Shown here in pieces: positions 38,749 to 42,134 of a DNA stretch of 58,206 bases. Below the pieces are notes generated by a model that saw only the letters and a list, made by a program, of their open reading frames with translations, was not told the origin of the DNA and ran no database searches. The position numbers and the translations under genes were made by a program. How positions within the stretch are numbered: position 1 is the first letter of the stretch; each line of letters opens with the position of its first letter. The DNA is from a virus, in IMG/VR virus record IMGVR_UViG_3300045988_060089, one strand, 5' to 3'.

Positions 38749-39069
38749 TCACATTGCCATTCCAACAATACCTCTTATCAGTTCATCAGCCAGTGCAAAC
38801 ACTTCTCTTCCGTAGGTAGCCAAAAAGTCGGCAACAATTTCTTCTGTCTGAATATCCATAGTCAAATTGTAGGACAGGCAGAACGCATGGCACAATTCAT
38901 GGCACAGCACACGGTCATAGAAATTGCCATGAATCATATTTGATATGTAAATATCTCTTGTGTTCCTGTCTGTCATGCCAAACGTATATGTACCATCAGA
39001 ACGCATCAGCATAGGGCTGGGACTTCCTACAAGCCTTAAATTCCAGTCCATTCCATTTATCGTGAACAA
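38749..39069 (-). CDS. Minimal HExxH metallopeptidase-like protein
   Basis: TTG start after ggaggtgg. VLCHELCHAF zinc-binding motif; 106 aa. Confidence 0.6.
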   Translation of the reverse strand: MFTINGMDWNLRLVGSPSPMLMRSDGTYTFGMTDRNTRDIYISNMIHGNFYDRVLCHELCHAFCLSYNLTMDIQTEEIVADFLATYGREVFALADELIRGIVGMAM

Positions 39070-39084
39070 CTTACCACCTCCAAC

Positions 39085-39107
39085 ATAAAAGGGGCTAAAT
39101 AAGCCCC
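39085..39107 (-). terminator. Rho-independent terminator (bidirectional shape)
   Basis: The minus strand reads ggggct-tattt-agcccc then ttttatg. Confidence 0.6.
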
Positions 39108-39116
39108 TTAAGTGTT

Positions 39117-39749
39117 TTAACCGATTTTTGTTATCAGTGCAGACAGCTTATTCCGCAGTACCGTCTTTTCTTCCGGTGTTGCATCGTTGATGATCTCCGT
39201 CATGTCGTTTGCAAGTTCGGTCATGTATGTGTTCAGGTCACGGACTTTTGCTTCTTTGTCCTGCTGTGTATTCGCCTTATGCAGTTCCTTATTTTCCATA
39301 TAGGTTCTGCGGCTCATTCCACTTCTGCCCTCTCTTGCATCACGCATACCGGATGAAGAAGTTTCCGTGTAGTACATACGTCCCATGTCTCTGTCCATGT
39401 CACGGTGATACATTTCCGGAGTCATGTGATAATAGGGTGGTTCTTCATAACCTCTGCGGTAGGTTCCACGACCTTTAGGTGCAAATCTGCCGTCAGCATA
39501 GCGGTAATGGTCATAGAACCGTCTTCCACCATCCCCATAACGTTCAAACATTTCCATGTTTTCGTCCGAATCATATTCCTGCATGGTTTTTGTCAGTTCC
39601 CGATAGTACATAGCTTCCGATAAGTCTTTCATCATGTCGATGACCTTCCCCATTTCGCAAGTATCTACTTTGTCAATTCCTTTGTCAAACTGCGTTTTAG
39701 CGCATTCAGAAAGTTTTTCAATCATTTCATGCATTCTTTTAACATCCAT
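39117..39749 (-). CDS. Tyr/Arg/Met/Asp-rich low-complexity protein
   Basis: taggaggtgaaaaatc SD. GGRRFYDHYRYADGRFAPKGRGTYRRGYEEPPYYHMTPEMYHRDMDRDMGRMYY flanked by helical ends. Confidence 0.65.
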   Translation of the reverse strand: MDVKRMHEMIEKLSECAKTQFDKGIDKVDTCEMGKVIDMMKDLSEAMYYRELTKTMQEYDSDENMEMFERYGDGGRRFYDHYRYADGRFAPKGRGTYRRGYEEPPYYHMTPEMYHRDMDRDMGRMYYTETSSSGMRDAREGRSGMSRRTYMENKELHKANTQQDKEAKVRDLNTYMTELANDMTEIINDATPEEKTVLRNKLSALITKIG

Positions 39750-39762
39750 GATTTTTCACCTC

Positions 39763-40185
39763 CTACGCTTCACGAACGGCAATCAAATTGCTGTTCTGCA
39801 CTTCAATAGCTTGCGTAGAAGTGTTCTGAACGGCTACCGTACTGCAGCATCCACGAGGAACATCAATGTAAGCCTGTGCAGAAACATTGAAGAAATTCTC
39901 TACTGCTGCCGGAGTTACAATCATTCTTGTGGACTGCAAAGGTTCTCCGTCTACTGCCAGTGCAAGGGAAATTTCCTCAACAGTTCCACCAGTGGGAATC
40001 TGAATGTTGCCGGAATAACTTACAAGGAATCTTGCACGACACTGATTAGTGATACCTCTTAACTTCACAATTCCGGATCCCTCTCTATGATTGATACAGT
40101 TACTTCCATTTACGGCAGTTTCGGTAAAAGCAACGTCTGCTCCTGCTGCCACAGTCTGTAATGCTACTGCTGTATATTCAGCCAT
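39763..40185 (-). CDS. All-beta protein, candidate TNF/C1q-like (BclA C-terminal-domain-like) fold
   Basis: agagagg SD. Alternating pattern ALQTVAAGADVAFTE..SGIVKLRG..RFLVSYSGNIQ..ISLALAVDGEPL..AQAYIDV..TVAVQNTS..IEVQNSNLIAV. Confidence 0.45.
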   Translation of the reverse strand: MAEYTAVALQTVAAGADVAFTETAVNGSNCINHREGSGIVKLRGITNQCRARFLVSYSGNIQIPTGGTVEEISLALAVDGEPLQSTRMIVTPAAVENFFNVSAQAYIDVPRGCCSTVAVQNTSTQAIEVQNSNLIAVREA

Positions 40186-40200
40186 AATAAAACCTCTCTT

Positions 40201-40235
40201 TCAAAATCAAAGGGGCAAACCATATAGTCTGCCCC
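40201..40235 (-). terminator. Rho-independent terminator within the cargo block
   Basis: The minus strand reads ggggca-gactatatggtt-tgcccc then tttgattttg. Confidence 0.65.
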
Positions 40236-40297
40236 ATGTTGTCAGTAATTCTGCATAGCAGACATAACCTTAAGGTTAAGTTACTCGATATGCAGTT

Positions 40298-41080
40298 TTA
40301 GCATCCGCAACCAGTGTTGCAACCACATCCGCATCCGTAATATACATTAGGGTTGGGAACCTGGTATGCCGGGATGGGCGCAGGATTCACAGCGTTGATG
40401 ATCTGCTGTGTCTGTGCACTCATGGCAGTAGTCAGAAGAGCATTCTGACGATCCTGAGAAGCGGCTCTGCGCAGATCGTTGTTCTCTGCCTGCAGAGTAG
40501 CGATCTTATCCTGACATAAGTAGTCAAGGATTGCTCTTGTACCGGCGTTCTGGCTGTCGATAATATCACGAGTGTTGTTATTCATGGTGTTCTGCAATGC
40601 GCAAGTATTCGTTGCCATATTGTAGTTTACACCCTGGATAGCTTCACGGGTATCGCAGCAGCACTGTGCTAACTGTGCCTGTAAAGCGTTAGCATTCTGC
40701 ATTCCTGCTACGGTGTCTGCATTGATAGCCTGTTGGATGCCATAGCCAGTCTGTAAAATGTTGGTATTTACGCCATTAAATCCGGTAAGCATACCATTGT
40801 TTACAGCGTAGAATCCGTCACACAGACCGTTGTTGATTCCGTCCAGTTTACCGATGATAGACTGGGTGTCGAACCCTCTTTGCAGTGCAGAATCGGTATA
40901 GTAACTGGAATTAGAGCCATTACCGCCCCATCCATTACCGCCCCAACCTCCAAAAATCGCAAAAATTACGACTATGAACCAGAGCCATCCACCGTCACCA
41001 AATGCACCATTATTTCCGTAGCCATTTCCGGCAGCCGGAATAACAGGCATGGTAAAAGGACTGTTGTTTGTTTCAAACAT
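40298..41080 (-). CDS. Gly/Trp-flanked single-TM protein with Gln/Asn-rich helical body and Cys-Gly C-terminal tail
   Basis: ggaggtaatctaat SD. GDGGWLWFIVVIFAIFGGWGGNGWGGNG; LAQCCCDTREA; ends VYYGCGCGCNTGCGC. Confidence 0.65.
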   Translation of the reverse strand: MFETNNSPFTMPVIPAAGNGYGNNGAFGDGGWLWFIVVIFAIFGGWGGNGWGGNGSNSSYYTDSALQRGFDTQSIIGKLDGINNGLCDGFYAVNNGMLTGFNGVNTNILQTGYGIQQAINADTVAGMQNANALQAQLAQCCCDTREAIQGVNYNMATNTCALQNTMNNNTRDIIDSQNAGTRAILDYLCQDKIATLQAENNDLRRAASQDRQNALLTTAMSAQTQQIINAVNPAPIPAYQVPNPNVYYGCGCGCNTGCGC

Positions 41081-41151
41081 ATTAGATTACCTCCATAATT
41101 TTATTCATAAAGAGGTCTCCCGGGTTTTGTGCACAAACCTCTAATATGCTG

Positions 41152-41373
41152 TTAAAAAGGAAACTGACTTTTTATCTGTCTTATTACATCATCAGGATTT
41201 ATACCTTTCGTTTTGCAGATGTTTCTCGCAAGATTTTCTACTCCTTGGAAATCACCTTTTTGAGCCATCCCATAAGCGTTTTTTACCATGTCGTTAGACA
41301 TGATCTGGCTGTTCCCCATCATATTTTGTATAAACTGTTGCGGATTCCCCATTGACTTAAGCATCTGCATCAT
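41152..41373 (-). CDS. Met/Gln/Asn-rich small protein (start uncertain)
   Basis: ORF track; MMQMLKSMGNPQQFIQNMMGNSQIMSNDMVKN. Confidence 0.5.
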   Translation of the reverse strand: MMQMLKSMGNPQQFIQNMMGNSQIMSNDMVKNAYGMAQKGDFQGVENLARNICKTKGINPDDVIRQIKSQFPF

Positions 41374-41836
41374 CCTTTCTTTGCGATTGTGGAGTTTTTC
41401 TTTGCGATTGCGAAGATTTCAACTGCTCAATCTTTTGTTCCAGTTCATCGAAACGCTTCATAAATACCGCTGTGGCTTCGTCTGATAGGTCAAATTTCGC
41501 CTTTTCTGTGTCTGACGGTAAATTGTTAGGGTCTGCATCTAAAACAGGCTTGTAAAGCCTTGTATAGATTTTCCCATCTGCTCCCCAGGATTTAGCATAG
41601 ATCTCCGACAGGTCCTGTTTTGGGAAAAATGCTGTGTTTCCATCCATAGGAACCTCATTCGGTGCTATGCACTCTTGCGCAGGTACAATACGTCCGTACA
41701 TCTGTACTGCGTTTTGCTGTGGCTGTTGCATAAACTGCTGTGGTTGGAATTGTTCCTGTTGTGGCATAAACTGTCCGTACATAGGTGTTCTATACTGCGG
41801 ATTGAAATAGTTCGGATTCATAATCGGCTGCGGCAT
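41357..41836 (-). CDS. Protein with Gln/Pro/Phe/Tyr-rich N-terminal tract
   Basis: MPQPIMNPNYFNPQYRTPMYGQFMPQQEQFQPQQFMQQPQQ then a globular and coiled-coil part. Confidence 0.6.
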   Translation of the reverse strand: MPQPIMNPNYFNPQYRTPMYGQFMPQQEQFQPQQFMQQPQQNAVQMYGRIVPAQECIAPNEVPMDGNTAFFPKQDLSEIYAKSWGADGKIYTRLYKPVLDADPNNLPSDTEKAKFDLSDEATAVFMKRFDELEQKIEQLKSSQSQRKTPQSQRKDDADA

Positions 41837-41889
41837 GGCTGTTCTCCCTTTCTTCCATTGATTCTATCTGTTTCGCAATTTCAACTTCA

Positions 41890-42078
41890 TCAAGTGTCTG
41901 ATATGTTGGCTTGTTCATAAGTCCCAACGGACTGAAATTCATAAGCATTACCCGTTTCTCCTAAAACTTCCTCGATCACATGAACCATGATTGATTGATA
42001 CTTAATCGGAACTTCCCTTGTACGTTCTTTGCTGAATATATGTTCCAGTGTTTCATCAGAAAATTTGAATTTTCCCAT
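41890..42078 (-). CDS. Small hypothetical protein, first gene of the cargo block
   Basis: aaggaggg SD before MGKFKFSDETLEH. Confidence 0.55.
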   Translation of the reverse strand: MGKFKFSDETLEHIFSKERTREVPIKYQSIMVHVIEEVLGETGNAYEFQSVGTYEQANISDT

Positions 42079-42112
42079 AAGGTCATCCCTCCTTATGATT
42101 AAATTTTGGCAT

Positions 42113-42134
42113 AAAAAAAGACGGTCTACCCGTC
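42113..42134 (-). terminator. Rho-independent terminator between attP and the cargo block
   Basis: The minus strand reads gacgg-gtaga-ccgtc followed by ttttttt. Confidence 0.75.

Follow-up and report, generated by a model that had tools for sequence, protein, structure and literature searches.

The IMG/VR record IMGVR_UViG_3300045988_060089 is a 58,206-nucleotide (nt) stretch of viral DNA, hereafter the window, that holds the genome of a temperate siphophage, with genes for a terminase, a portal, a major head protein, anti-repressors and a repressor, together with four tRNAs and a Spo0A_C-domain protein. Between positions 38749 and 42134 lies a block of seven open reading frames (ORFs), all on the minus strand, and our comparisons identify it as variant A of an accessory cassette that is self-contained, moves horizontally, and occurs in thousands of gut phages. 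A previous reading of the same DNA, made without database searches (the sequence-only reading), had delimited the seven ORFs and quoted peptides from them, and it was correct on both counts. In the direction of transcription, the genes are p62 (41890-42078; 62 residues, small and acidic), Q159 (41357-41836; 159 residues), q73 (41152-41373; 73 residues), P260 (40298-41080; 260 residues), P140 (39763-40185; 140 residues), RY210 (39117-39749; 210 residues), and Zn106 (38749-39069; 106 residues, with a TTG start). Q159 and q73 overlap by 17 nt, and RY210 is translationally coupled to P140.

The GC content of the cassette is 0.445 to 0.46, compared with 0.36 to 0.41 in the flanks, and the 6.5-kb region contains 13 terminator-like sites where shuffled sequences would lead one to expect 4.1 ± 2.1. 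A terminator scan placed hairpins at 42134-42120, 40235-40212, and 39109-39089, close to where the sequence-only reading had put them. Its description of an insulated unit of genes unrelated to virion, replication, or lysis functions and adjoining the integrase gene and phage attachment site (attP) likewise held up, as did its account of unusual protein composition. We find a Gln/Pro/Met-rich N terminus in Q159, a Gln/Asn-rich body with a CCC motif in P260, an Arg/Tyr/Gly/Asp-rich core in RY210, and a HELCH motif in Zn106. It had also credited every ORF with a strong GGAGG Shine-Dalgarno (SD) site. Perfect copies precede four of the seven (p62, P260, RY210, and Zn106), but the other three have the weaker sites GGGAG, GAGAGG, and AAGG.

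The evidence that the block is a unit comes from its recurrence. We assembled loci from 10 phage records along with 80 loci from species-representative genomes, clustered their ORFs, and rescored them with family hidden Markov models. Across 91 loci, gene order was invariant: [tm98]-sig-(C127 or p62)-Q159-q73-P260-P140-RY210-(D111 or Zn106). Because corresponding genes recur in an unchanged order in 91 independent loci, the block lies far beyond what chance would produce. P140 is present in all 91 by selection; P260 was found in 86, RY210 in 84, Q159 in 71, and q73 in 69, followed by C127 (57 loci), sig (47), D111 (34), Zn106 (17), and p62 (8, each time as the first cassette gene). The cassette comes in two flavors. 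Flavor A, which includes the window, begins with p62 and ends with Zn106, whereas flavor B begins with C127 and ends with D111. The Q159 proteins of the two flavors are homologous, as are the RY210 proteins (hhalign probability, 94.8%). We had considered Zn106 and D111 as divergent homologs, a candidate relationship that hhalign rejected, and no homolog of C127 or D111 was found elsewhere in the window.

The cassette occupies three genomic contexts and is co-oriented with its neighbors in every locus. In the first context, it follows endolysin, amidase, or holin genes and mostly lies ahead of a divergent integrase and repressor; lysis genes are upstream in about 25 loci and a recombinase is downstream in about 22. 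In the second context, represented by 14 of the 91 loci, it sits between portal/gp7-like head genes and scaffold/major capsid genes, as in Dulem virus 35, with the scaffold gene confirmed by PF06810. In the third context, it comes after sig and an integrase or serine recombinase, as in the window, Dulem virus 39, and locus L014. The carriers include phages of two different major-capsid clusters, and the cassette is absent from close relatives of carrier phages. Genes encoding tm98 or BhlA-like transmembrane (TM) proteins travel with it, even inside head operons. Furthermore, the q73-P260, P260-P140, and P140-RY210 junctions of several loci are interrupted by additional ORFs, some of which resemble HNH or other homing endonucleases. 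The cassette thus seems to be targeted repeatedly by mobile endonucleases. Examples of such insertions are L004 (about 6410-6961), L049, L001 (8449-9312), L083, L069, and L016 to L021 (P260/P140 junction).

The cassette also carries its own regulatory anatomy. The gene sig (43589-43810, minus strand; 73 residues) encodes a small helix-turn-helix (HTH) protein of the sigma-70-region-4/LuxR type, with weak Pfam matches to GerE (6e-5) and Sigma70_r4_2 (0.01) and matches to PHROG sigma-factor families at about 1e-3. In 47 of 91 loci, irrespective of the surrounding context, the gene immediately preceding the cassette encodes a homolog, which makes it a probable cassette regulator. Since sig directly abuts the cassette elsewhere, the integrase gene and attP have evidently been inserted between the two in the window, and an integrase or serine recombinase gene with attP likewise separates them in Dulem virus 39 and L014. 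In most loci, the junction 3' of sig consists of a hairpin with a T-run, a AAAATATAAT-like −10 element, and the SD site of the first cassette gene. In the window this junction spans 42134-42098 on the minus strand, where the insulating hairpin (42134-42120) and its T-run are followed by a −10-like TTTAAT (42103-42098) and then the SD site of p62. We infer from this arrangement that the cassette owns a promoter placed after the terminator. With its own terminators, a putative promoter, and variable positions among genomes, the cassette has the attributes of a moron-like, autonomous unit. A further terminator-like hairpin, read by the scan on both strands, lies at the RY210/Zn106 junction (39109-39089), and one is found at this junction in 7 of 14 flavor A loci. 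Between q73 and P260, a stem-loop of the form AGAGGT...ACCTCT followed by TTTAT (41142-41111, minus strand) has a loop too large for the terminator scan.

Genes within the cassette are tightly packed, with median gaps of 0, 8, and 14 nt (0 nt for Q159-q73 and 8 nt for P140-RY210), but the median gap between P260 and P140 is 114 nt. This gap holds a three-hairpin RNA element. In the window it occupies the 3' flank of P260 (40203-40297, minus strand) and consists of H1 (40283-40265), H2 (40262-40250), and the terminator H3 (40235-40212), followed by a U-run (40211-40203). A covariance model detected the element once per locus in 64 sources (1.1 Mb searched), each time directly 3' of P260; the match in the window (40184-40298, minus strand) scored 54.7 bits (E 6e-7). 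Other copies lie at 7883-8000 in L003, 6885-7000 in L029, and 662-781 in L053, as well as in 60 further loci. RNAalifold found compensatory changes in 12 of 13 consensus pairs. H1 varies in sequence, yet a conserved ATG linker directly adjoins the end of its 3' arm. The mean stem length of H1 is 5.9 bp, compared with 3.3 bp in shuffles, and 36 distinct 5' arms occur. H2 has the form TCGGC-N4-GCCGA with covarying variants, and H3 is a GC-rich terminator. Where an extra ORF separates P260 from P140, the element stays with P260. It was not found in Bacteroides, archaeal, or Clostridium perfringens loci, and an Rfam search of 38600-42400 with 4,227 covariance models returned no matches at E ≤ 1. 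The element is a candidate new cis-regulatory or 3'-untranslated region (3'-UTR) RNA, and it may serve as a 3'-UTR or attenuator of P260 that divides the cassette into two suboperons.

P260 is the universal core of the cassette, followed by P140 in phages of Clostridia apart from C. perfringens phage XP41-N3. It matches PHROG 16490 at 1e-58, and its family numbers at least 7,997 homologs at 90% clustering and at least 2,393 clusters at 50% identity. The protein is 21% Gln plus Asn and 13% Gly, with 11 Cys. Its most hydrophobic 19-residue window (residues 26-44) reaches 1.77 on the Kyte-Doolittle scale and includes a putative hydrophobic Gly-zipper anchor at residues ~32-44, after which come about 180 residues of predicted Gln/Asn-rich helices that contain an invariant CCC motif, then a PxPIPAY motif (PxPxPAY in the alignment), and a C-terminal (GC)n tail. 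Residues W34, C140-142, P235, P237, C258, and C260 are invariant in the alignment. The sequence-only reading had described Gly-rich flanks on both sides of the hydrophobic segment; there is indeed a GGWGGNGWGGNG run on the C-terminal side, but the N-terminal side reads GDGG. The AlphaFold2 (AF2) model of P260 is unreliable, with a predicted local distance difference test score (pLDDT) of 36.9, and from it we used helix positions alone, namely, those of a hydrophobic helix and of three long helices (72-104, 116-161, and 169-231). Nearly all of the top 150 P260 representatives are stand-alone proteins of 230 to 300 residues. A different architecture is seen in P0376 (399 residues), which joins the N-terminal half of P260 (1-172) to a GDSL/SGNH-hydrolase-like C terminus and may be either a genuine fusion or an assembly or frameshift artifact. 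The idea that q73 is fused to the N terminus of Bacteroides and archaeal P260 proteins was rejected (hhalign probability, <1%).

P140 is a new and very divergent member of the C1q/TNF/BclA C-terminal domain fold class, as predicted by structural modeling. It matches PHROG 20016 at 7e-70 and has 7,257 homologs in a large protein collection (90% clustering). Sequence comparison with Pfam and the PDB does not place it in this class: there was no Pfam family at E ≤ 1 and phmmer returned no match in the PDB at E ≤ 10. The AF2 model, built from a 44-sequence alignment, is confident (pLDDT, 87.8; predicted template modeling score, 0.82) and shows the ten-stranded jelly roll of the C1q/TNF-like superfamily. 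Foldseek searches of the PDB gave as the best match the C-terminal domain of the F-BclA tip fibrillum (9h38; E 1e-7; template modeling [TM] score, 0.72 to 0.76), along with ExsFA/BxpB (7r1m and 8d02, TM score 0.76; 9h3d) and the BclA C-terminal domain (1wck; TM score 0.67). Foldseek probability was 1.0 for F-BclA, BclA, and ExsFA, which were followed by EDA-A1, C1q, and cerebellin, and the list also contained phage receptor-binding knobs (a fiber domain of cyanophage A-1(L) and the spike knob of phi812). Identity to the structural matches is 9 to 16%. In BFVD, P140 retrieved many stand-alone gut-phage proteins of 130 to 145 residues, some of them named "BclA protein," and also collagen-plus-C1q fibers of giant viruses. 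The proposal that 39763-40185 encodes a stand-alone TNF/C1q-type jelly roll is thus borne out by AF2 and Foldseek (TM scores of 0.67 to 0.76), with Bacillus spore-surface proteins as its nearest solved relatives. P140 contains a conserved GCC motif. Its 140 residues form a wholly globular domain, in which neither an exosporium leader nor collagen-like GXX repeats were found.

The remaining proteins are rich in low-complexity sequence or small. Q159 (PHROG 21718, 5e-13) has a Gln/Pro/Met-rich low-complexity N terminus (13 Gln, 8 Pro, and 5 Met in residues 1-42), a small conserved domain, and a coiled-coil, basic tail. The small helical protein q73 is rich in Met, Gln, and Asn and is translationally coupled to Q159. 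RY210 has an acidic helical N terminus, an Arg/Tyr/Gly/Asp-rich low-complexity middle (13 Arg, 11 Tyr, 9 Gly, and 7 Asp in residues 70-140), and a helical C terminus. No family match in Pfam, NCBIfam, or the PDB was obtained for Q159, q73, or RY210, and p62 had no match in Pfam or PHROG. Zn106 had been singled out as a minimal metallopeptidase, and the alignment bears out the motif: all 14 aligned sequences retain H56, E57, H60, E75, and E76, an HExxH...EE pattern that points to a metallopeptidase-like protein with a third acidic ligand. It matches PHROG 1233 at 4e-14 and, below the family cutoffs, the Pfam families SprT-like (0.0046; 17.2 bits against a cutoff of 25.6) and M78 (0.012; 15.9 bits against 22); the best PDB match, the minigluzincin MJ1213, was not significant (E 0.24). 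The PHROG families of P140, P260, Q159, and Zn106 are all labeled "unknown function." For the seven proteins together, searches of Pfam, NCBIfam, PADLOC, and PDB sequences yielded nothing significant, and no PADLOC defense model scored below E 0.06. In flavor B, the residues Cys20, His100, and Asp111/114 of C127 (127 residues, PHROG 3754; e.g., L010 5364-5753 and L001 6074-6451) are invariant and succeed one another as in papain, which suggests a cysteine peptidase or a transglutaminase-type enzyme. An extra protein of 175 to 197 residues (PHROG 17879) ends the cassette in L007 (4604-5197) and in XP41-N3 (L093, 6508-7035); by eye it resembled ferritin, an impression that Pfam did not support.

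The distribution of these genes is broad. The closest genomic copies are in Lachnospiraceae, namely, Clostridium sp. CAG:510 (96%), Lachnospira, Acetatifactor, Hungatella, and Agathobacter, with further copies in Oscillospiraceae, Ruminococcaceae, and Acutalibacteraceae. A few odd labels on metagenome-assembled genomes are probably due to misbinned phage contigs. Butyrivibrio is a genus without spore formation, and a full flavor B cassette is present in the Butyrivibrio virus Ceridwen. Growth of this phage was seen to be lytic only, and its authors judged it to be virulent (PMC7372960). In addition, homologs of Q159 (E 1e-19), P260 (E 1e-44), and D111 (E 1e-8) are encoded together with a q73-like gene in the C. 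perfringens phage XP41-N3, and P260 homologs occur in five more cultured C. perfringens phages, making six in total. In the place of P140, XP41-N3 has an unrelated, beta-rich protein of 125 residues with a Cys-rich N terminus, MTCNRRCNCCNRR (L093, 5550-5927). This protein seemed Ena-like by eye, in that it recalls the connectors at the N termini of Ena appendage subunits, but had no match to the Pfam families DUF3992 or DUF4183.

P260 extends well beyond Clostridia. Full-length homologs (E 1e-44 to 1e-46) that retain CCC, PxPxPAY, and GCGC motifs are encoded by the cultured Bacteroides uniformis phage C3_41T2LP, which was isolated from plaques, by the crAss-like phage cr115_1, where the gene adjoins a holin gene, and by more than 12 other crAss-like genomes. 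The crAss-like proteins are annotated as "spike protein/glycoprotein" or "outer capsid protein/viral fiber" and are encoded near virion genes. Viruses of Methanomassiliicoccales contain a shorter, lower-scoring homolog (E 1e-17 to 1e-18) with no Cys tail. In two of them (L094 and L095; vir335 and vir215), the protein has a long acidic N-terminal extension. The P260 gene of vir215 follows a reverse transcriptase gene and a "tail protein" gene (phrog_5302), an arrangement that looks like a diversity-generating retroelement, and vir335 has a tail protein gene nearby. In Bacteroides loci, P260 has analogous neighbors, namely, a protein of 146 to 180 residues, a coiled-coil protein, an Arg/Tyr/Asp-rich protein, and a HExxH "PolyVal" peptidase, none of which showed homology to P140 detectable with hhalign. 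P140 as a universal partner of P260 was therefore discarded, given that P260 neighbors in the Bacteroides phage and in XP41-N3 are not homologous to it (hhalign probability, <1%). The literature on crAss-like phages and BclA, on Lachnospiraceae C1q-like prophages, and on C. perfringens and B. uniformis phages yielded no functional or proteomic data on cassette proteins.

Parts of the cassette are reminiscent of known systems. P140 shares its fold with the BclA C-terminal domain, F-BclA, and ExsFA/BxpB, proteins of the exosporium and of the F-type endospore appendages (ENAs) (1wck, 9h38, 7r1m, and 8d02; PMC12357932). Like ExsFA/BxpB, it is a stand-alone protein in the range of about 140 to 170 residues that is encoded beside Cys-rich partners, as are the proteins of ENAs and the exosporium. 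Unlike BclA and ExsFA, P140, compared here as a predicted monomer, has only 9 to 16% identity to them and no collagen-like stalk or leader, and it is encoded by phages, including those of non-sporulating hosts. With split viral fibers that have a coiled-coil stalk and a jelly-roll head (reovirus sigma1, PRD1 P5, and collagen-plus-C1q fibers of giant viruses and phages), the apparent likeness lies in a hydrophobic N-terminal anchor, a helical rod (P260), and a head (P140). The cassette differs in that head and stalk are separate polypeptides and in the Cys clusters and (GC)n tail of P260. Like phage morons, it is terminator insulated, has a putative promoter and regulator, occupies variable sites, is absent from related phages, and has a GC content above that of its flanks; unlike them, it comprises six to nine genes in strict order, occurs in virulent phages and in head operons, and is targeted by homing endonucleases. 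Zn106, with about 106 residues and a HExxH motif followed downstream by Glu-Glu, recalls minigluzincins, ImmA/IrrE (M78), and SprT-like proteins, with matches that fall below family cutoffs, and it differs from these minimal HExxH families in being replaced by the unrelated D111 in flavor B. Finally, the N-terminal TM segment, coiled coils, and conserved Cys of P260 resemble the lambda i-spanin Rz, which is periplasmic in its coiled coils. However, the hosts here are monoderm, an o-spanin partner is missing, and P260 is nearly twice as long and has a (GC)n tail. It does not qualify as a spanin, the nearest hosts being Lachnospiraceae and Oscillospiraceae and the cassette containing no lipoprotein gene. 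As a whole, the cassette resembles nothing that has been characterized, and the sequence-only reading was right that no such phage module had been described, insofar as we found no account of one in the searchable literature.

What could such a cassette do? The explanation that we tentatively prefer, while granting that it may well be wrong, is that P260 forms a Cys-rich helical stalk, anchored hydrophobically and capped or adapted by a P140 trimer, which is built during phage growth and has its effect on the envelope of cells under infection or in lysis. Its starting points are observations: the content, order, distribution, and insulation of the genes, the structure and covariation of the RNA element, and the fold of P140. 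Under this model, the sig regulator, the insulating terminator, and the cassette's own promoter would drive two translationally coupled suboperons, Q159-q73-P260 and P140-RY210-peptidase. Once switched on during phage growth, the cassette would give rise to a fibrous, Cys-rich assembly at the membrane of the infected cell. P260 would insert by means of its Gly-zipper segment and extend a Gln/Asn-rich helical rod of about 180 residues, with the CCC motif and the C-terminal (GC)n tail forming cross-links or binding metal. A trimer of P140, similar to C1q, the BclA C-terminal domain, and ExsF, would cap the rod or serve as an adaptor, while Q159, q73, and RY210 could be assembly or matrix partners and the small peptidase (Zn106 in the window) could mature one of the cassette proteins. 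Partial termination at the RNA element may hold P260 in excess of P140. The completed assembly would then alter the cell surface during infection or lysis, perhaps through receptor masking or adhesion, and would leave spores unaffected.

This cell-surface model is consistent with the presence of P260 in a plaque-isolated B. uniformis phage, crAss-like phages, and gut viruses of archaea and with that of the cassette in Ceridwen and in six cultured C. perfringens phages. Homing-endonuclease-like insertions in the cassette and the lysin, amidase, or holin genes upstream of it in about 25 loci also fit. Moreover, the cassette moves as a unit among three contexts together with the HTH gene and the terminator/−10 junction, which argues for autonomy. 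A number of points count against the model. The P260 structure prediction is unreliable (pLDDT, 37), and the hydrophobic segment is short and borderline as a TM helix. P140, Q159, q73, RY210, and Zn106 have no signal peptides, so they could gain access to an extracytoplasmic rod only once the membrane had been opened. Nor does P140 occur in every carrier, with unrelated proteins in its place in C. perfringens and Bacteroides phages. The timing of expression, the insertion of P260 into the membrane and its localization, its contact with P140, the cross-linking, and the purpose of the whole are steps that we infer. The classic moron positions in the window and in many prophages may leave room for expression from the prophage. 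And in 14 loci, placement between gp7-like and scaffold genes suits a role in the virion at least as well.

That last point leads to the main rival, a virion fiber, which we regard as unlikely but deserving of serious attention. P260 would be a trimeric coiled-coil fiber anchored in the capsid or neck by its hydrophobic N terminus, P140 a separate C1q-like head, and the other proteins assembly chaperones, an arrangement like a fiber of reovirus (sigma1), adenovirus, or PRD1 (P5) divided between two polypeptides. Besides the 14 of 91 loci situated between portal/gp7-like and scaffold/major capsid genes, this explanation draws on the frequency with which C1q/BclA-type domains tip viral fibers (the collagen-plus-C1q proteins of giant viruses in BFVD; A-1(L) and phi812 in the PDB), on the spike and fiber annotations of crAss-like P260 proteins encoded near virion genes, and on the co-orientation of the cassette with late genes everywhere. 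Yet the virions of the carriers are unrelated, with two major-capsid clusters, crAss-like podoviruses, and archaeal viruses among them, and no docking domain is recognizable in the proteins; most loci lie outside structural operons, and the literature offers no virion proteomics for any carrier. Furthermore, because the cassette has its own regulator, promoter, and terminators and is missing from close relatives, it is best classed as accessory. A further proposal, which we consider rather improbable, is that the cassette is a portable kit of the gut virome for building an exosporium- or ENA-like protein structure that can be cross-linked through cysteines and that protects virions or debris or makes them adhere. 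P260 rods, a C1q-like adaptor, and a low-complexity matrix would be the parts, and the cis-acting RNA would set their stoichiometry. The cysteines would stay reduced in the anoxic gut and lock once oxygen was met, so that the coat around progeny virions or lysed-cell debris would do for phages what an occlusion body or a spore coat does elsewhere. If true, this would aid fecal-oral transmission.

Three other explanations carry still less weight in our judgment. An accessory role in lysis or egress, in which a membrane-anchored coiled-coil P260 would act with holin and endolysin in the manner of a spanin or regulator while the other proteins tune envelope disruption or release, has a low probability. 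It would make sense of the lysin, amidase, or holin genes immediately before the cassette in about 25 loci, of P260 following the holin gene in cr115_1, of the comigrating tm98 and BhlA-like TM genes, and of the i-spanin-like combination of N-terminal TM segment, coiled coils, Cys, and Pro-rich end. But monoderm Clostridia have no need of a spanin, there is no outer-membrane lipoprotein partner, cr115_1 already has a LysB/Rz-like gene, six or seven genes rich in low complexity exceed any known lysis accessory, and the cassette in the window is far from the lysis genes. The sequence-only reading had favored spore-surface morons, that is, TNF-like, Cys-rich, and Tyr-rich proteins that a sporulating lysogen would express for its spore coat or exosporium. 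In its favor, P140 is structurally closest to proteins of the exosporium and of endospore appendages, its partners are Cys rich and Tyr rich, the phage encodes a Spo0A_C protein, the cassette lies by attP here and by an integrase gene in about 22 prophage loci, and the hosts are Clostridia, many of them spore forming. Nevertheless, the cassette is not confined to phages of endospore-forming hosts: it occurs in Ceridwen, with its purely lytic growth in a non-sporulating genus, in head operons, and near lysis genes, while P260 turns up in B. uniformis, crAss-like, and Methanomassiliicoccales viruses. Two findings that the sequence-only reading had named as telling against its proposal, a non-sporulating host lineage and homologs in lytic phages, were each in part what we observed. 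P140 is without a collagen stalk or exosporium leader, and the suspected likeness to YjcZ, coat, or exosporium proteins has no Pfam or NCBIfam counterpart for any of the seven proteins. Five patterns for sporulation promoters (sigma E, K, F, and G) had no matches in 38700-42300, where 0.005 to 0.36 were expected, a weak negative given that the consensus patterns are those of Bacillus subtilis and may not fit the host. A spore-surface role is rejected as the general one because of how the cassette is distributed, and we think it improbable altogether. Slightly more doubtful again is an intracellular platform or condensate, in which Gln/Asn/Pro-rich and Arg/Tyr/Gly-rich proteins would phase-separate on a P260 anchor and thereby concentrate assembly or shield phage DNA. 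Prion-like or RGG/Tyr-type low-complexity regions in three of the seven proteins, signal peptides in none, and the head-operon placement of some loci are compatible with it. However, the reasoning is purely compositional, it leaves the C1q-like fold and the Cys-rich tail unexplained, and homologs in phages with very different assembly pathways speak against a morphogenetic role.

Whichever function applies, the cassette has implications for the gut virome. With more than 7,000 homologs each at 90% clustering, all of them "hypothetical," P140 and P260 place it among the more abundant uncharacterized gene sets of gut viruses. P260 is shared by phages that infect Clostridia, phages of Bacteroidota (the crAss-like ones among them), and viruses whose hosts are methanogenic archaea. 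Any function, be it surface remodeling, virion decoration, or particle protection, would account for a trait common to unrelated gut viruses, and the cassette would show the reuse by phages of a fold of the spore-surface type. Because carriers have been cultured (Ceridwen; C. perfringens phages XP41-N3, CPD1, and 17DYC; and C3_41T2LP), its function is directly testable.

Several features outside the cassette complete the picture of the window. The tyrosine integrase gene (42391-43611, minus strand) matches PF00589 at 2e-16 and PHROG 1 at 9e-37. Between it and the cassette lies a probable attP (42205-42369, minus strand), with a tRNA 3'-end-like core at about 42310-42271, including GGGGTTCGAGCCCCC at 42298-42284, and three AGTAGTCAA repeats around it (42369-42361, 42225-42217, and 42213-42205) that look like the arm-type integrase-binding sites bordering an attP core. 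The tRNA 3'-end-like stretch was read by eye and the putative attP function follows from it; ARAGORN detected no complete tRNA at this site. We had entertained TTTGCAAAGAT as a late-promoter motif common to the cassette and the terminase region, but the resemblance is a coincidence, as its remaining copies belong to a repeat within coding sequence, "FCKD." Directly upstream of sig is a gene (43839-44726) similar to that for 3'-phosphoadenosine-5'-phosphosulfate (PAPS) reductase (PHROG 424, 2.5e-36). The Spo0A C-domain gene reported by the sequence-only reading at 2445-2765 is real: it is on the minus strand, encodes 106 residues, and matches PF08769 at 31.2 bits, above the cutoff of 25. Spo0A_C is the DNA-binding domain of the master regulator of sporulation, here borne by a phage, and the gene overlaps the start of an SbcC-like gene (494-2530). 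Finally, a tRNA cluster (29254-30292) upstream of the packaging genes comprises tRNAs for Met, Arg (TCT), Tyr, and Gln.

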